Below the pieces are notes generated by a model. It saw only the letters and a list, made by a program, of their open reading frames with translations, was not told the origin of the DNA and did no database searches. From Promethearchaeota archaeon (lineage in GTDB: Archaea; Asgardarchaeota; Lokiarchaeia; Sigyniarchaeales; SOKP01), in NCBI GenBank assembly GCA_019057865.1, contig JAHLWP010000052.1, forward strand, positions 1-22,065: 22,065 nucleotides of DNA, read 5' to 3'. The translations under genes and the position numbers were made by a program. Shown piece after piece: positions 2,617 to 21,265 of the stretch; the first letter of the stretch is position 1, and every line of letters begins with the position of its first letter.

Positions 2617-2850
2617 ATGAAATCAAATATATTATATGAAATCAGAGATACAAGGGATTATGAAATGGGTATAGATAAAATCCTTTCTAAAATCATTAAT
2701 TTAATAAAAAAAATAACAGGTACAACAAATATAGAATTTCAATATTATACAACAAAGATGAAATTTAAAAAATTATCGGGAAAATCTCTAAAATTTATTA
2801 TTCCTGCTATAGTATCAATTATGTCGTTTGTTATTAAGTTAATATTTTAA
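2617..2850 (+). CDS. Small hypothetical protein with a hydrophobic C-terminal helix
   Basis: ATG 17 nt after the previous stop; C-terminus FIIPAIVSIMSFVIKLIF. Confidence 0.4.
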   Translation: MKSNILYEIRDTRDYEMGIDKILSKIINLIKKITGTTNIEFQYYTTKMKFKKLSGKSLKFIIPAIVSIMSFVIKLIF

Positions 2851-2913
2851 TCAATTTCAATAATTAATTTAAAGTTGTTTAATTATTTAATCAGGTATAT
2901 TAAGAAATAGAAG

Positions 2914-3159
2914 TTGATTTTATATTTTAGAGAAAAATTTGAAAATTTAGACTTAATTTTAGATTTAGATCAAAAAAAAGTTCTTTTTATATATTCTCTT
3001 TATTCTAGTGAAGAAAAATTAGAGTTTCTTCAGTATACTGGAATACTGGCTATTTGTTACTATTTAATGAAAAATGGTATCTTTCCAAATTATAAAGAAC
3101 TAGTATTAATATATGATTATAAAGATTCTAGACGTTATTTATGGGAAGATAATATTTAA
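2914..3159 (+). CDS. Hypothetical protein
   Basis: 81-aa TTG-start ORF co-oriented with its neighbours; no motif recognised. Confidence 0.4.
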   Translation: MILYFREKFENLDLILDLDQKKVLFIYSLYSSEEKLEFLQYTGILAICYYLMKNGIFPNYKELVLIYDYKDSRRYLWEDNI

Positions 3160-3164
3160 AAAAA

Positions 3165-3542
3165 CATTTGGCAAACATCCATAACATAAGTATAAATTGG
3201 CATAAATGTCCTCATTGCGACTATAAGGCTAAGCAAAAACCGAGCATAACAAGACACTTGGCAAATATCCATAGCATAGGTATAAATTGGCATAAATGTC
3301 CTCATTGTGACTATAAAGCTAAACAAGAATCGAACTTAACACAACATTTAGCTAATATCCATAACATAGTTATAAATTGGCATAAATGTCCTCATTGTGA
3401 CTATAAAGCTAAACAAAAATCGAACTTAACACAACATTTAGCTAATATCCATACCATAGGTATAAATTGGCATAAATGTCCTCATTGTGACTATAAGGCT
3501 AAGCGAAAATCTCATTTAACTATCCATTTAACTCGGAGTCAT
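3165..3542 (+). repeat. 90-bp coding tandem repeat (about 4.2 copies) encoding the zinc fingers
   Basis: tataaattggcataaatgtcctcattg recurs at 3191, 3281, 3371 and 3461. Confidence 0.95.
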
Positions 3543-3572
3543 GATTCAAGTACTAAAATTAAAAATGATTGA
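3168..3572 (+). CDS. Tandem C2H2 zinc-finger protein (four complete fingers plus a partial one at the N-terminus)
   Basis: Four units of C-x2-C-x12-H-x4-H (e.g. CPHCDYKAKQKSNLTQHLANIH) with a 30-aa period. Confidence 0.9.
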   Translation: MANIHNISINWHKCPHCDYKAKQKPSITRHLANIHSIGINWHKCPHCDYKAKQESNLTQHLANIHNIVINWHKCPHCDYKAKQKSNLTQHLANIHTIGINWHKCPHCDYKAKRKSHLTIHLTRSHDSSTKIKND

Positions 3573-4425: not shown

Positions 4426-5160
4426 TTAATTTATGGAGTTCGATAGAATAATTAAAAGCCTATTAACAGATTCTTTTGAATGGTTTCCGTAGATCAATAG
4501 ATTCCCAGAAGAATCTAATCTTGCGGTCAGATCTTTCATTCGATTACCTTCTGAATCAGCGATATTCCATCTTATTCTAAATGTTATAACTTTAATCTGT
4601 TCTGAATCTTGAATTAATTGGTTAAAATAACCAATATTCTGTACATCATTAGTGCTTAAATTCAATTCTTTAATTAAATCGCCCTCTAAATATACTTTAT
4701 ATAAAATTAGTCTATGTAATTTTATACCATAACCTTCTTCAAGACATTGGCTTTTTAAGTTATTCCAAGTTTTTATTAATTTCTTGGGTTTGAAATCTTT
4801 TGGTAATATGTCAATATTGCTATTAAGATATTTTTCTATTAAATATCGTATTTCTCCTTGACCTCTTGCAATATATAACAAAATATCTTTTTGAATTAAA
4901 TTAATATCCTCTGGCACCCACACCTTAGTTTCTCCTGGCAATTGCATATTGTATTGATATCTAAGAGTATACGCGTTATCTGCTAAATTTTCATTTACAA
5001 GAATGTTGGGAGTTTTTATGTTTTTCTTTAATCTATCAATCTTCTGATTAACAGACTCTAGATCTCCTCGTACAGACTTAACATCATCCAACCACATAGA
5101 AGAAAATAAGCTTTTTAAATCAAATTTTTGTTTAATTCCATAAATTTTGTAAGATGGCAT
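4426..5160 (-). CDS. Hypothetical alpha/beta protein (operon gene 4)
   Basis: About 244 aa. The ATG at 5160 follows a GGAGTG RBS, so the GTG at 5169 used by the track is part of that RBS. C-terminal ITFRI...LTARLDSSGNLLIYG beta-meander. Confidence 0.8.
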   Translation of the reverse strand: MPSYKIYGIKQKFDLKSLFSSMWLDDVKSVRGDLESVNQKIDRLKKNIKTPNILVNENLADNAYTLRYQYNMQLPGETKVWVPEDINLIQKDILLYIARGQGEIRYLIEKYLNSNIDILPKDFKPKKLIKTWNNLKSQCLEEGYGIKLHRLILYKVYLEGDLIKELNLSTNDVQNIGYFNQLIQDSEQIKVITFRIRWNIADSEGNRMKDLTARLDSSGNLLIYGNHSKESVNRLLIILSNSIN

Positions 5161-5175
5161 ATTTTTCACTCCTAC

Positions 5176-6750
5176 TTATTGTATTGTTAATAAATATTCA
5201 TAAAAATCATTATTAATAGAAACGAGACTAACAGGATTATAGTCTAGTCGAACATTTGGTTCCCGTGTCGCATCATAATTATAATTGAATATATTCTGTC
5301 TTAAATAATTAAAGTTTGGATGGTTCATAGCTGTTTGATGGCCAATTATTATTAACTTTTTTTGAGCTCTTGAAAGACCTACTAAAATTCGATGCCTATT
5401 TTGCATGAATCGAGATCTTACATCCGGTTCTGCAAATGTTAATGAATAAAATACAATTTGTGCTTCCTGACCTTGAAATGCATCGACTGTATTAGCATTT
5501 AATCCAGTTGCTCTCCTTAGTCTTCTAGCTTGAGGCTTATAAGGAGTTACTATCTTCACATTATCATTATTAATTTCTAAGGTTGGAAAGGCTCTTTGAA
5601 GTAATATAGACAAACTACTTACAATTTCAACTTCCCTAATGTTTATTCGAGAGCTTCTTACTCTTGTATCCAAACTTATATCACCCAAGTTCGAAGTATC
5701 TATGACTACAACTGTTTTTTGTGGATTGAAAATACTATCTAAAAGATCTGAATATGAATCACTTTCAAAATTTTGATAATCTGGTAATAAATAAGAAGGA
5801 GCAGTAACATTCTCACTATCTCTTATCATCACTATTCTTCTAGCAAATCTAGATGATATATCTCTAATTGCAGGATGCATACGATATTGAATATTTAAAG
5901 TTATTTGTCTATTTTCAGGAATCCTAGAGTTTTCATATTCAGGAAGTCCTCTTAAGTAATCTATACAGCTATGAGTTAAAGGTTCCAATGATGAAATGGG
6001 GGATAATTGACAATCATCACCAATTAATCCAAAGGATCTTATTGAAGGATTTTGTGATATTGGAAGATACATTTCTGCAGGAGTCAATTGACTGGCTTCA
6101 TCAAAAAGAACTGTCTGCGATCTTATAGGATTTGGTAATCTAAGTAAATCATTACATGCATATATAGTCCCTACAAATACTATTCCATTATCTAACTGTT
6201 CTTGATGGACTCTAGGATCTTCATTACTAAATGGTCTGGGTCTGATAATATGGTTCCTAACAGATTCTGAAATATCTTCTTCATTGACGGTTTGAGCAAT
6301 AACTCTACGAAAATATATTTCCCATCCACGAATTCCAATGATGTTTAAAATCTCAAGAATTTTTTCAAAAATTCGATCTGCTCCATAGTTAGATGAAGTA
6401 CATAAAAATACTCTTGGCGAACTTGCTAGATATTGAGGATTACAGACGTATAAAAGTGCACCATATGCAATAACAGTAGTTTTTCCTGTTCCTGGCGGAC
6501 CAATAATAATACAACTTGAGAACTGTTGACGAGTTGGAGGATCAATTACATAAAATCGATCTGAACCTATAAAACTATCTAAAGTTGTGCTTTGAGTTCT
6601 CCTTATTCTTGTAGGAAAAACACTTGCTCTCCAAATTCTCCTAATTGCCTGTTTTTGACTATCATTTAAAGCATTCTCTAAATCACTAGACTCATTCAAC
6701 TTCTCTTGTATATAATCATTGATTCTATTAGTTATAATTTCCCACGACAT
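5176..6750 (-). CDS. Superfamily 1 helicase, UPF1/Dna2/NAM7-like (AAA_11/AAA_12)
   Basis: LNDSQKQA (Q motif), GPPGTGKT (I), TSSNYGAD (Ia), FDEASQ (II), GDDCQLSP (III), QYRMHPAI (IV), TVDAFQGQE (V), VGLSRAQ (VI). AGGTG RBS upstream. Confidence 0.93.
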   Translation of the reverse strand: MSWEIITNRINDYIQEKLNESSDLENALNDSQKQAIRRIWRASVFPTRIRRTQSTTLDSFIGSDRFYVIDPPTRQQFSSCIIIGPPGTGKTTVIAYGALLYVCNPQYLASSPRVFLCTSSNYGADRIFEKILEILNIIGIRGWEIYFRRVIAQTVNEEDISESVRNHIIRPRPFSNEDPRVHQEQLDNGIVFVGTIYACNDLLRLPNPIRSQTVLFDEASQLTPAEMYLPISQNPSIRSFGLIGDDCQLSPISSLEPLTHSCIDYLRGLPEYENSRIPENRQITLNIQYRMHPAIRDISSRFARRIVMIRDSENVTAPSYLLPDYQNFESDSYSDLLDSIFNPQKTVVVIDTSNLGDISLDTRVRSSRINIREVEIVSSLSILLQRAFPTLEINNDNVKIVTPYKPQARRLRRATGLNANTVDAFQGQEAQIVFYSLTFAEPDVRSRFMQNRHRILVGLSRAQKKLIIIGHQTAMNHPNFNYLRQNIFNYNYDATREPNVRLDYNPVSLVSINNDFYEYLLTIQ

Positions 6751-17109: not shown

Positions 17110-17532
17110 TTAGTTTGGTAGGAGAATAGAGATATCCAAGTACCATTCAGTTTTACCATCTTCAAAGACAATAAAAGAACCATTGATTTCATAATCAATT
17201 TCAAAATTTTCTTGCAATTCTATAAAGTTTTGAAAGTAAAACATGGAAAATCTCTGTGATTGAAGGCATTTGATTACATTATCAATTATTTGAACTACTT
17301 GCTCTTGCCATATGAACGGAATATGGGTTAATGCATACGTGAGAATCTGAATTTTAGGGAAATCTAAGATATCTTTGGTAGCTTCTTCTATAATTTCAAG
17401 TAATAACGTGGATAACTTTATATTATCGAAAAGTATTACAATTGAGACGTATGATTTAATACCCGAAGCTCCTTCAAATACATGATTTGGATTTTATTCC
17501 GGTAATGTTTCGATTAGTGGGAGTGATAATAT
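17110..17532 (-). pseudogene. Start-less gene remnant with an internal stop, not in the ORF track
   Basis: 127 open codons from 17493 to 17113 (NPNHVFEGASGIKSYVSIVILFD...EWYLDISILLPN*), preceded by an in-frame TAA at 17496-17494 and ILSLPLIETLPE. Confidence 0.5.
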
Positions 17533-17719
17533 TACCAGTTATAAAATAAGAGTATGGGTTGATTGGCCTAAAAATCCACCAAGAGACCCGAAAGGAATTC
17601 AATATACATTTGGGGATTCTGATGGAGATAACCTTACAGACTTATTTGAGATTGATCATGGTCTCAATCCACTCACAAATGATACAGATTCTGATGGGTT
17701 GGATGATTATTATGAGTAA
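17486..17719 (+). pseudogene. Fragment of a protein with thrombospondin type 3-like (TSP3) Ca-binding repeats
   Basis: Open frame lacking an upstream start reads ...GDSDGDNLTDLFEIDHGLNPLTNDTDSDGLDDYYE*, matching the DxDxDxxxDxxE repeat consensus. Confidence 0.75.
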
Positions 17720-17879
17720 CTTCCTTGTAAGAACACAAAGCAGAAATAGATGTTACCCGCCAAAGCGGGCATTTGTTAGTTCCCAAATGTGAACCCTTTC
17801 AGTACCAATATCACTTAATTTCATACTGATAGAATACTGCAATCTGATATTTAAGTGTAGCGGAAATATATTTTCAAGT

Positions 17880-18143
17880 CTATTCACTTAGTATATTATC
17901 TAATACTTCAGGATTCCAAATATAATCACAGATTTTCTGATATAATACCTGTCTAGTATCTAAATCAATCTTCTTAAATTTCTCATGTGCTTCAAAAGGT
18001 AAACCACTTTCTTTTAAAAATTTTAAAAAAGATGGATTTTTATCATAACAATTTTTATTTAGTGATTTTGCGAGTATATTTTGACCAAAATATTCTACAA
18101 CCTTTTTAAATAAGAGTTAAAAGAATAATAATAATCCTATTAA
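17880..18143 (-). pseudogene. C-terminal remnant of a GmrSD-type (DUF262/DUF1524) modification-dependent nuclease
   Basis: Frame 18116-17880 reads KVVEYFGQNILAKSLNKNCYDKNPSFLKFLKESGLPF...KKIDLDTRQVLYQKICDYIWNP. Shifted frames just upstream give IGLLL and FNSY, like the DUF1524 motif IGxLLLL...FNxSY. Confidence 0.6.
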
Positions 18144-18145
18144 AT

Positions 18146-18412
18146 ATGACCAAAAAAATTAAAAAAGCAAAGGAAAATCTTTCAAATCTTCCCTCAAAAG
18201 ACGGGAACTATAATCTTTTTAATAGAAAAGGAGAGATGGTCTATACTGGACAAGGAAACATAAAAGATAGAATCTCTACCCATTCCAATGAGCCAGATAA
18301 ACCATTCACATCATTTACATATAATCTAGAACCTTCTGCTAGAAAACGAAAACAGACCGAGGAACAGAGAATAAAACGTTATAAGCCACCTCTGAATAAA
18401 CAAAAAAAATGA
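18146..18412 (+). CDS. Stand-alone GIY-YIG nuclease domain (UvrC N-terminal-like)
   Basis: LPSKDGNY...GEMVYTGQGNIKDRISTH...EEQRIKRYKPPLN matches LP...GvY...G..iYvG...l..R...E...I....P.yN; TATA-like TTTTTAAATA at 18103-18112. Confidence 0.85.
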   Translation: MTKKIKKAKENLSNLPSKDGNYNLFNRKGEMVYTGQGNIKDRISTHSNEPDKPFTSFTYNLEPSARKRKQTEEQRIKRYKPPLNKQKK

Positions 18413-18531
18413 TTTTAATGAATCTATAAAGATAAAATAAAAATTCTATATTATTAATATTTAAAAAAAGTGAAATTATTGGCTAAGAAACGAATTGGAA
18501 AAGCCAAAAAAGTAAAAAATTAATGGTGGGT

Positions 18532-18816
18532 TTAATGATAACGAAATAAGTCATCGCAATATATATGTTTTTCAAACTTTTCTATATTAAATGATGGTGG
18601 TACATCTTTAAGGAACTTCATAAGTTCTTCTCTTTTCTCTAATATTAATCTAATAATACCATTCTTTTCGCTTTTTGTACGGTCTATGGTCGACCAGCTC
18701 AACGCTTTGCATATATTATTAGCAACATCCATGACAAGTTCATACTCAACAGCATCTTCTATATTAGAATGTTCGGTATTATATTTGGTCTTATATTTTT
18801 TTATTTCTTCGGGCAT
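18532..18816 (-). CDS. Hypothetical protein (about 94 aa; likely start MPEEIKK)
   Basis: ATG at 18816 lies about 26 nt downstream of a BRE-TATA-like element, consistent with a leaderless mRNA. Confidence 0.65.
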   Translation of the reverse strand: MPEEIKKYKTKYNTEHSNIEDAVEYELVMDVANNICKALSWSTIDRTKSEKNGIIRLILEKREELMKFLKDVPPSFNIEKFEKHIYCDDLFRYH

Positions 18817-18841
18817 TATAAATAGAGTTAACAAAACGAGC

Positions 18842-18860
18842 TTTATAAATATTTTTGCCC
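18842..18860 (-). promoter_or_regulatory. Archaeal BRE + TATA box
   Basis: Minus strand reads GGGCAAAAATA-TTTATAAA at canonical distance from ATG 18816. Confidence 0.5.
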
Positions 18861-19108
18861 CTAAATAAAAAAATAATAAAAAAATTAGGATTTAAGATAT
18901 CGAATTATCAATTCTAGTTTATCGGTAGGAAGAGCAGATTCTTTTTTAAGTAAATATAAGACAAGAATTAAAGGATAAAATTTGATATTCTAAAGTTAAG
19001 TTTTCAATTTCTTTAAAATTTTTTATATAAATTCTTTTATTTCTTTTATTTTCTGATTTTTTATTTATAAATACTCAACATTAGTTTATTCAATTAAAAT
19101 TAAAAAAA

Positions 19109-21265
19109 TTGGTGATAATAGTAAAACCCGAATTTTATCATGCTGTTATAAAAATAACTCAAGTTCCCAATGTGAATAATAAAAGTGAAGATAACATATC
19201 GTGGTTATGTGACCCTTTTATCGACGGTTATGTATATGGTACCAAATTTACAATAGACAATGAATATTTTTCATGGAAATTCTTTATAAAAGAAAACTCC
19301 AAAGGAGAAGCTCTCAAGAGTGGGTATAAATTTTTGGATTATTTAAAAGAAATATATCCAGGATTATCAGGAAATGTGAAAGTAAAACCAATATACTCCA
19401 AAAAATTAAATGAAAAGAAAATCTTTTTCGAGGTTGTACTCCCAACACCCCCATTCAATAAAAAGGTAAGTCTTTTTAAAAAAATCCTTAATCTTTTTAC
19501 CTTTAATAACAGACACTCAATTAAAATATATGTTTTATGGCAAAAAGATGACTCTATCTTAGGAGGGGGTATTGAAGAGACAGAATTAGAAAAGGAATAT
19601 AAGCTTGATGAAAATTATAAAATAAAAATTTTTGTTTCTATAATGCCAAATTTCGATGAAAATTTAGATAATGAAGAACAAATGCAAAAACTGAAAGGAC
19701 ACATAGAATATTTAACAACAGATATCCGCAATACCAATGGTGTGAAAGCTTTCATTAAACAGGCATCAAATGAGACATGGGAAAACATATTAAATGGAAG
19801 ACCTTTCTGGAAGAACATTTTAGGTAAGGTAACAGGAAGGTATTATAGAGGTATTCAGGATCAAATTTCAGAAGATAAAATGCCTGGATTTGTGAATCCA
19901 GAAATTGTGGATTTTGAAATTCCTGAACATATACTAATTGATAAAGCAATTCATGTAAGAAATGAAAATATAAGTTTTACTCAAAGACCTAATAAAAATG
20001 ATATATCTCTTGGGTATTATATAAGTCGTGGAGTAATAACGAAAAGAATTGCTACCCTCCCAGTTAATGATCTCGCTCGTCATGCTCATATAGGAGGTAA
20101 AACAGGAGTTGGAAAAACCAGTTTTATAAATTCATTACAGTGTGAGATATCTAAAAAAAATCCTAAATGTGGAGTTTTGATCATGGGTCTGAGGAAAAGT
20201 AAAGAAGATATTCCCTATAATTTGGATATAACATTAAGATATGGAGATCCAGATTTTAGAGTTCCCTATTTTTTTAAAGGAGAAAATCTCGAGGTTACAT
20301 TTGAACAAACAGCAGCCTTAATAGTATCCTCAATGGGATTAAAACAACCAGTTGACCATGCCATGTACAATGTAATGCTTGAATATTTTAAAGAAAATAA
20401 AGATGTTCCACCGTCATTGAAGTCTTTGTTTGGAAAACTTCTTAATTGGTTTAAAGCCCATCCCTATCATAAAAAATACCAGACCAATATCATAAATGCA
20501 ATTAATAATCGTATCCTTAGATGGGTAAAATCTCCAATCTTAGATAAGATAACAAGATTACCTTCTATCAAACCGTATTGGTTTATTGAATGGATGAATG
20601 GTAAAAACGTTTTCATTGATATATCTGAATCTATTTGTAATAAATTTATGAAAAAACTATTAATCAATTTAATATTTCAGATGATACGAATTTTTTTTCC
20701 AGAAATTAAAACTAATGTATTAAGGAACTTAGTTATTTTAGATGAAGTGGGAGTTATCTTAAAAAGACCCTCTACTAATATAGCTCGTGATGATGATTTT
20801 GTATCACAATATTTTCTAGAAGAAGTATTTTGTAATTTCTTAGAATCGTTTAGAAGTAGAGGAATTGGTCTTATAACTACTGCTCAACTACCCTCTCAAC
20901 TATTCGAATCGATATATACCCTTCCAAATATTCATATTTTATTTACATTAGGACATAGTTGTACTAAATTATTTACGAATGACAGAGAAGAACAAGATTC
21001 CCTAATGCTTTTAGGAAAAAGAAAGGCGATAGTAAAAGATGGGATTAATAGCCGAAATTTTGCAATTTATACCATAGATTTTGATTATGAGAAAGTACCA
21101 TCCCAGTCTATAAAGAATCCCGAGAAGTTATGCCCTTTATGTTATAATTACATAGAGTCTTATGAAAATTTTTGTAGTGCCTGTGGGATTCCCTTAAATT
21201 CAGATTCTAAGTTAAGCATTGATAATCTAGATGAAGATTCTACTAAACTTAAAGAGAAAAATTGA
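19109..21265 (+). CDS. HerA/FtsK/VirB4-superfamily (DUF87) ATPase with a C-terminal double-CxxC zinc ribbon
   Basis: RHAHIGGKTGVGKT (Walker A), LVILDE (Walker B), FRSRGIGLITTAQLPS (arginine finger and conserved Gln), CPLC...CSACG. Confidence 0.9.
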   Translation: MVIIVKPEFYHAVIKITQVPNVNNKSEDNISWLCDPFIDGYVYGTKFTIDNEYFSWKFFIKENSKGEALKSGYKFLDYLKEIYPGLSGNVKVKPIYSKKLNEKKIFFEVVLPTPPFNKKVSLFKKILNLFTFNNRHSIKIYVLWQKDDSILGGGIEETELEKEYKLDENYKIKIFVSIMPNFDENLDNEEQMQKLKGHIEYLTTDIRNTNGVKAFIKQASNETWENILNGRPFWKNILGKVTGRYYRGIQDQISEDKMPGFVNPEIVDFEIPEHILIDKAIHVRNENISFTQRPNKNDISLGYYISRGVITKRIATLPVNDLARHAHIGGKTGVGKTSFINSLQCEISKKNPKCGVLIMGLRKSKEDIPYNLDITLRYGDPDFRVPYFFKGENLEVTFEQTAALIVSSMGLKQPVDHAMYNVMLEYFKENKDVPPSLKSLFGKLLNWFKAHPYHKKYQTNIINAINNRILRWVKSPILDKITRLPSIKPYWFIEWMNGKNVFIDISESICNKFMKKLLINLIFQMIRIFFPEIKTNVLRNLVILDEVGVILKRPSTNIARDDDFVSQYFLEEVFCNFLESFRSRGIGLITTAQLPSQLFESIYTLPNIHILFTLGHSCTKLFTNDREEQDSLMLLGKRKAIVKDGINSRNFAIYTIDFDYEKVPSQSIKNPEKLCPLCYNYIESYENFCSACGIPLNSDSKLSIDNLDEDSTKLKEKN

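Follow-up and report, generated by a model that had tools for sequence, protein, structure and literature searches.

Tandem arrays of classical C2H2 zinc fingers are the main programmable DNA readers of eukaryotes, and the locus described here raises the question of how such an array came to lie in the genome of an Asgard archaeon. It is found on a 22,065-nucleotide contig of Promethearchaeota archaeon (JAHLWP010000052.1, assembly GCA_019057865.1), analysed at its full length and referred to below as the window, where an open reading frame (ORF) of 134 codons encodes four fingers in tandem. Comparison with its relatives indicates that this ORF is probably a recently 5′-truncated orphan copy of the DNA-binding array from a TniQ-type target selector of an Asgard Tn7-like transposon.

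The four-finger array and its growth in place

The array and its 5′ border comprise the following features:
3150–3197, + strand: 5′ breakpoint and remnant, a TAA codon (3150–3152) followed by LKKHLANIHNISIN (finger helix end plus linker), with no Cys pair upstream
3156–3511, + strand: 90-bp repeat of 4.0 units, each of which runs from a helix end through an 8-residue linker and a beta-hairpin with C-P-H-C to the beginning of the following helix
3168–3572, + strand: ORF of the four-finger C2H2 array, 134 aa, TTG start, TGA stop at 3570–3572
3207–3272, + strand: finger 1 (first Cys to second His), with Q, P, S and R at helix positions −1, 2, 3 and 6
3297–3362, + strand: finger 2, with Q, S, N and Q at these positions
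3387–3452, + strand: finger 3, with Q, S, N and Q
3477–3542, + strand: finger 4, with R, S, H and I, followed by a nine-residue tail

The 90-bp repeat was reported by Tandem Repeats Finder with 4.0 copies, 89% matches and 0% indels, and a repeat scan of the contig returned these 90-bp units in the same register. The four complete fingers of the ORF read WHKCPHCDYKAK-x7-HLANIH, with a C-X2-C-X12-H-X4-H spacing and a period of 30 aa, and they are joined by an 8-residue linker, x-I-x-I-N-W-H-K, in which TGEKP was not matched. Both the replacement of TGEKP by xIxINWHK and the helix residues QPSR, QSNQ, QSNQ and RSHI are exactly as given in a preliminary description of this DNA. The ORF scored above the cut-offs of Pfam zf-H2C2_5 (PF13909; 76.2 bits, cut-off 27, E=1.4e-21) and zf-C2H2 (PF00096; 53.2 bits, cut-off 25.2, E=2.5e-14), in four stretches each. 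An AlphaFold2 model, for which a 16-row family alignment was the input, showed a mean predicted local distance difference test (pLDDT) value of 83.6 and four beta-beta-alpha (E-E-H) units with block pLDDT values of 85–93. In Foldseek this model matched CTCF, Aart, ZBTB7A and WT1 with a probability of 1.0, the nearest solved structures being DNA-bound CTCF arrays (template-modelling (TM) score 0.6–0.65) and the designed six-finger protein Aart (PDB 2i13; TM 0.71), and a phmmer comparison of the array with CTCF gave E=1.4e-16. The core positions conserved in the family are L/I at +4, Y after the second Cys and H/Y/F before the first Cys. Judged by ligand spacing, profile score and predicted beta-beta-alpha fold, the ORF product is a classical C2H2 tandem array. 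Marginal PADLOC matches of the finger protein to Cas10_Id and DrmB (E ~0.003, no stretch passing alone) were rejected as cysteine/histidine noise. On the − strand, a 56-aa ORF at 3156–3326 is a by-product of the repeat and not a gene; a matching antisense frame lies over the finger fragment of L011, a contig of another Promethearchaeota metagenome-assembled genome (MAG).

The repeat units are nearly identical in their backbone and, as had been described beforehand, the changes among them are concentrated in the recognition helix. In the 23 codons for scaffold and linker, comparison of the four units gave 7 synonymous and 4 non-synonymous changes (pN/pS 0.11; P=5.7e-4 for 7 of 11 being synonymous), with all 4 non-synonymous changes sitting at two linker positions. 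The corresponding counts in the seven helix codons (−1 to +6) were 2 and 9 (pN/pS 1.1), so that 9 of the 13 non-synonymous changes fall in 7 of the 30 codons (binomial P=4.4e-4). The variation at helix positions was checked in homologues as well: in 39 fingers from nine related archaeal arrays, the window array being left out, entropy was highest at −1 (3.69 bits) and +2 (3.39 bits), and +3 and +6 were within the top seven of the 30 positions. Finger units were compared through identity tables and the linker signature, 30-residue units being too short for a trustworthy rooted tree. The window fingers were on average 72% identical to each other (maximum 90%), and at most 67% identical to any finger outside the array. 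Since they resemble each other more than they resemble outside fingers, the array appears to have been expanded or homogenised in place, which agrees with the modular and recently expanded protein of the preliminary description. Closer likeness within than between arrays was likewise seen in giant-virus arrays and in P0021, a relative described below. Read from these comparisons, the array is one that grew by duplication of a 90-bp unit, with the scaffold kept and the base-contacting helix positions free to change.

At position 3417 the window has an A where a public 260x contig has a G, a difference that turns K into E at helix position +1 of finger 3. A G at this position would make the end of unit 2 identical to the end of unit 1, and the difference reflects either variation between strains or, in one of the assemblies, a small mis-assignment of repeat sequence.

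Relatives in Tn7-like operons and the cut 5′ end

A word-indexed search of 5.8 billion proteins returned one near relative, P0001 (63% identity), which is the last of three genes on its contig (ENA ERZ26661968), behind a Mu-transposase_C/rve protein and TniB (AAA_22). When 1.84 billion representatives were searched exhaustively with HMMER, 16,513 matches were obtained, most of them obvious eukaryotic zinc-finger proteins with TGEKP linkers and ZAD or THAP N-termini. A distinct subset combines the linker H-[DN]-I-G-V-x-W-[HYF]-x-C with a period of 30/32 aa, and its members were found in two contexts, Tn7-like operons and giant-virus-like contigs. In the first context, a fusion of TniQ with zinc fingers (TniQ-ZF) follows a TnsA-N/rve fusion and TniB (P0132), or a TnsA-like protein, a Mu-transposase_C protein and TniB (P0021). 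Among 60 relatives, the array was found in only two genomes of the same order, in which genes for a TniQ N-domain plus fingers (TniQ-N+ZF) lie directly after TniB (G038:C179, 55% identity to the window array; G047:C74, 45%). The proteins from Tn7 contexts share an N-domain of ~80 residues (PxHPxP..IGxWIExLAxAN...LTG...NEF) at the TniQ position of the operon; these N-domains align mutually, and that of P0132 gave a weak Pfam TniQ match (E=0.003). Behind the ~80-residue TniQ N-domain, the intact relatives carry 5 to 10 classical C2H2 fingers at a 30-aa period. In one intact Tn7-like element (L006), a group II intron reverse transcriptase (4863–5699; RVT_1, GIIM, HNH) lies directly after the TniQ-ZF gene, which points either to an intron residing in the transposon or to a cargo gene.

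Tn7-family elements of archaea, including the C2H2-fused TniQ clades VII–X, have been described by Thesier, Hsieh, Schargel, Wingo and Peters (bioRxiv 10.1101/2025.07.27.667033). Five archaeal TniQs, of Asgard and Hydrothermarchaeota origin, were found there to have tandem C2H2 fingers, against none of thousands of bacterial TniQs, and the reading of the attachment site by the finger arrays was inferred. Orphan tniQ genes were set aside in that preprint, and TniQ-less arrays and giant viruses are not mentioned in it.

Alignment of the window ORF to TniQ-ZF proteins was possible only from the helix of their first finger on. The array frame opens at 3153, right behind the in-frame TAA, and its first residues, LKKHLANIH (3156–3182), are the C-terminal half of a finger helix with the Cys pair missing in front. 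Homology to the repeat is abrupt from 3156, and the upstream DNA is unrelated in all three frames. No in-frame ATG is present in the array ORF, in which the TTG at 3168 is the sole start; the ten leftover residues at its beginning (1–10) are predicted to be disordered (pLDDT 56). The leftover helix end of this unit 0 still has a perfect scaffold, which suggests that the units had probably diverged before the gene was cut. On the other side of the junction lies the following feature:
2914–3159, + strand: 81-aa ORF of unknown family in another frame, the junction partner, outside the array and with no Pfam match

A related contig from another pair of sediment runs (X3/X4) shares positions 2902–3152 with the window (8 substitutions, 2 indels) and carries unrelated sequence exactly from 3152, so the junction was marked as a recombination breakpoint. 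An independent 2,042-nt contig at 264x spans 2700–3304 with zero differences, so that the unusual 5′ junction exists in the DNA and was not created in assembly. None of the public runs listed as containing the locus is of RNA. A frameshift or sequencing error that would have separated the array from the upstream 81-aa ORF was rejected: the two ORFs lie in different frames without a slippery heptamer, similarity to TniQ or to fingers was not seen in the upstream one, and the 264x contig confirms the region base for base. The piece of ~250 bp with the 81-aa ORF is flanked by unrelated sequence on both sides in the X3/X4 contig, and resembles a small movable cassette.

The window makes up contig C51 in full; the genome to which this contig belongs (4.26 Mb, 99.7% complete, contamination 5.15%, CheckM-type) has an archaeal small-subunit rRNA and four actin-family genes (best 444 bits) and is therefore that of an Asgard archaeon. 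TniQ (PF06527) was absent from the best 25 of the 61 Pfam matches listed for the window ORF, and a family-specific profile of the TniQ N-domain (A2) gave no match on the contig at E<=1. Searches of the window and of the genome gave no TnsA-N match and no TniB or TnsB belonging to this family; the single Pfam TniB match in the genome was rejected as Cdc6/Orc1. Elsewhere in the genome we found a two-finger fragment (C58:53685–53957, − strand), whose upstream first finger is degenerate and stop-interrupted, and a 49-codon fragment of the TniQ N-domain (C33:7969–8091, − strand; LPLHPPPNLQETIGEWIDRW...). A separate, intact short orphan TniQ of 176 aa (C28, L025:1114–1647, − strand; Pfam 74 bits) is also present, without Tn7 partners.

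Within its 22 kb the contig showed no convincing terminal inverted repeats or arrays of ~20-bp sites, and no tRNA or Rfam element was found in the window as a candidate attachment site. A target of the type 5′-NGG-NAA-NAA-GNA-3′ had been loosely suggested from the zinc-finger code. The corresponding site, GGAAAAAAGNA, had 0 matches in the window (0.33 expected) and 77 in the genome, compared with 48–91 for eight permuted controls, and thus gave no signal; the non-canonical linker also leaves the code uncertain.

Because it lacks two defining features of a TniQ target selector, the TniQ domain and the linkage to tnsBC, the ORF was classed not with the TniQs themselves but as an orphan derivative. 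Rather than a free invention of the locus, the array is better placed among those of TniQ target selectors, cut mid-finger and without the TniQ domain. The parent gene would have encoded a TniQ N-domain and C2H2 fingers directly after tniB/tnsC. The role of TnsD/TniQ as target selector is established for Tn7, and by analogy the fingers of the parent would read the attachment site, the TniQ domain recruiting TnsC and TnsAB. Duplication of the 90-bp unit and diversification of the helices would have come first and truncation afterwards, with loss of the N-terminal TniQ domain and of the transposase partners leaving the orphan. Because the TniQ domain is missing and no TnsC of this family was found in the genome, we infer that any product would be capable of DNA binding at most and unable to direct transposition.

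In the same genus the array was detected in 2 of 53 other genomes. One of them (G061) carries an orphan 401-aa TniQ-N gene with nine fingers, with no TniB of this family in the genome, and the other (G076) a stand-alone 157-aa array that has an ATG start, also begins at a linker and is 41% identical to the window array. At the G061 locus (L022:6148–7967, G061:C38), the orphan gene is adjoined by a 975-aa ResIII/SNF2-type helicase and ParB-like genes, and a 203-aa neighbour ORF in the opposite orientation combines a SWIM-like Cys/His motif with another TniQ-N-like domain following it. Phylum-wide, in 400 sampled genomes, the TniQ-N subtype was present in 9 and arrays at E<=1e-8 in 25, a count that includes, for 17 of the 31 genomes of genus g41, a more distant set whose identity to the window array is ~30%. 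A conserved adjacent pair of C2H2-array ORFs of ~150 aa and ~390 aa in this genus (family f13; e.g. G115:C68:52495–53433 and G099:C49:117937–118722) looks like a vertically inherited host zinc-finger gene, not a mobile one. Further traces are a one-finger fragment in L011 and a stop-ridden finger fragment in G245 (3 TAA stops). The census was taken from the genome profile search; a contig scan with alignment A1 gave one locus (L011), its pattern being too narrow for a census. Tandem C2H2 arrays are rare but not foreign in Asgard archaea. The eukaryote-type character of the array had been recognised correctly, but the accompanying claim that such arrays are confined to eukaryotes and their viruses was too strong in view of these 25 genomes.

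Competing explanations for the orphan array

The derivation of the ORF from a TniQ target selector by truncation is supported by its patchy distribution, with 2 of 53 congeners positive and most of the window not conserved in congeners. Several points weigh against this derivation. The Pfam TniQ match of the relatives' N-domain lies below the curated cut-off, and no Tn7 ends were found, since scans for direct and inverted repeats over the whole 22-kb contig gave AT-rich chance pairs only. The frame of 134 codons is intact in DNA of 27% GC and its scaffold is strongly purifying, which fits a used gene too. The stand-alone array of G076, with its own ATG, suggests that arrays lacking TniQ may be a legitimate form of the gene. 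Finally, whether the TniQ fusion or the orphan came first is judged by the mid-finger start, not by a rooted tree.

It is possible, though we consider it clearly less probable than truncation, that a working stand-alone DNA-binding protein is made from the TTG at 3168, acting as a transcription regulator of the island or as a domesticated TniQ DNA-binding domain on the former attachment site, for instance to block re-insertion of related transposons. An intact ORF whose scaffold is under purifying selection while its contact positions are free to change would suit such a protein, as would the confident four-finger model, which superposes on the DNA-bound Aart and CTCF arrays, the G076 relative, and the orphan TniQ-N+ZF gene of G061, which stands without a neighbouring TniB. 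However, selection may have left its signal before the gene was truncated, as the helix remnant of unit 0, which has no use, is equally intact; the only start is a TTG right behind a stop, followed by the disordered leftover; the gene is absent from 51 of the 53 other congeners and is not conserved beside the five-gene operon in G012; and the code-derived site is absent from the window. We regard as unlikely the view that the ORF, instead of deriving from a TniQ gene, represents an ancestral type of free-standing zinc-finger gene of the host, such as Tn7-like TniQ proteins later captured. Stand-alone arrays do exist in Asgard archaea, as in genus g41, and the co-option of host DNA-binding domains by TniQ has been argued for (bioRxiv 10.1101/2025.07.27.667033). 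Nevertheless, the window array is 45–63% identical to TniQ-fused arrays, compared with 41% to that of G076 and ~30% to those of g41; it starts mid-finger with no usable N-terminus, debris of a TniQ N-domain lies in the same genome, and nearly all congeners lack the array.

An artefact, in which a fragment of a eukaryotic or giant-virus zinc-finger gene was misjoined to an archaeal contig by chimeric assembly or contamination, would be very improbable. The linker subtype is common to giant-virus-like metagenomic contigs, the contamination estimate of the MAG is 5.15%, and the public sediment-run contigs, built at k=31, break inside the repeat and leave 3304–3377 unbridged. Against these points, independent contigs span both sides of the gap, the 264x contig up to 3304 and another public contig from 3393 to 4000. 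In addition, GC content is uniform (~27%), parts of the contig match further contigs of this genome and of congeners at 79–92% identity, and the closest relatives of the array are on Asgard contigs, not viral ones. Comparison with public contigs makes an assembly chimera, a possibility raised beforehand, unlikely. As to the number of units, a 42-mer common to units 1 and 3 had a depth of 550.8 versus 264.2 in the flanks, a twofold ratio consistent with four units. A further proposal, to which we give only a slight chance, is decoy immunity against transposons within the defence island: the TniQ-less array would be kept to occupy or titrate the attachment site, blocking re-invasion by Tn7-like elements with the same finger code, and duplication of fingers in place with helix substitution would retune such specificities.

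Comparison with known arrays and the genomic neighbourhood

Of the systems known, the TniQ-C2H2 fusions are the closest to the window array, which comes from the same phylum, is an array of the same kind, lies within the range of identity given above and shares their linker signature. It differs from them in having no TniQ domain, tnsA/B/C or detectable ends, and in starting mid-finger. With CTCF ZnF3–11 and Aart it has in common the ligand spacing, the hydrophobic core, the beta-beta-alpha fold and the variability at −1, +2, +3 and +6. On the other hand, eukaryotic arrays have a period of 28 aa, H-X3-H and TGEKP, whereas the window array has 30 aa, H-X4-H and an 8-residue I-G-V-x-W-H-x linker; its aromatic residue after the second Cys is shifted (C-D-Y-K-A), it has no effector domain, and its host is an archaeon. 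Neither the window protein nor its archaeal relatives contain TGE[KR]P, and the window protein does not show the Krueppel-type combination of a 7-residue linker and a 28-aa period. Ros/MucR proteins consist of a single domain of a different, larger fold. They resemble the window protein in placing Cys2His2 zinc ligands in a prokaryote, but the latter is a tandem array whose best sequence and structure matches are classical eukaryote-type arrays.

The giant-virus arrays (P0008/P0152, P0076, P0033/P0153) share with the window array the H-D-I-G-V-x-W-H-x-C linker, the 30-aa period and H-X4-H, at 43–47% identity over the array; they have 7 fingers, viral-gene neighbours and no TniQ domain. P0152 adjoins PolB, a nucleocytoplasmic large DNA virus (NCLDV) major capsid protein and topoisomerase II, P0076 adjoins PCNA, and P0153 lies near RNR and YqaJ, all on giant-virus-like contigs. 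Seven-finger proteins with the linker H-D-I-G-V-x-W-H-x-C and the 30-aa period are encoded on giant-virus-like marine contigs at L008:10001–11200, L028:1125–2327 and L029:3954–5165.

C2H2 arrays on the selectors of Asgard Tn7-like elements bear on the origin of this module and represent a naturally zinc-finger-guided transposon, as already published in the 2025 preprint. The present locus adds a clean example of 90-bp unit duplication with change focused on the base contacts, a mode as in animal KRAB zinc-finger protein (KZFP) genes and here seen in an archaeon. It also indicates that arrays may be left as orphan fragments when a transposon decays, and the linker subtype common to Asgard arrays and marine giant-virus proteins hints at exchange between gene pools. 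None of these three additions alone changes the current picture.

Nearly all of the contig is absent from congeners, and the setting of the array, described beforehand as an archaeal defence island, is indeed an accessory Asgard region full of defence-type genes. The following genes were identified within the window:
window: type IIG restriction-modification enzyme (PADLOC E=2e-265)
window: Ser/Thr kinase fused to a Dsr1-like region
window: superfamily 1 (SF1) helicase resembling MkoA
window: PRTase-like protein
window: NYN RNase
window: HerA-like ATPase

A five-gene operon neighbouring the array is present in congener G012, where the array is not conserved beside it. The cargo of Tn7-like elements, often consisting of defence genes, lies behind tniQ. 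In the window the array is on the + strand and has the defence genes on its right, a layout that would be compatible with a decayed element, and these defence genes may be former transposon cargo.

Repeated and multicopy sequences were also observed in two other parts of the window. At the contig start (1–140), upstream of the gene for the NYN/Zc3h12a-like RNase, there is a 55-nt direct repeat, 89% identical, with its copies 85 nt apart, and the block 34–754 is multicopy at 79–80% identity in the same genome (C36) and in congeners. At 17330–21220, inverted repeats of 32 nt (84% complementary) flank the gene of the HerA/mad8-like ATPase (718 aa), and positions 19051–20000, in the 5′ part of this gene, are 91–92% identical to C70 of the same genome and to congener G012. 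This arrangement suggests that the HerA/mad8-like ATPase module is mobile or recently duplicated.

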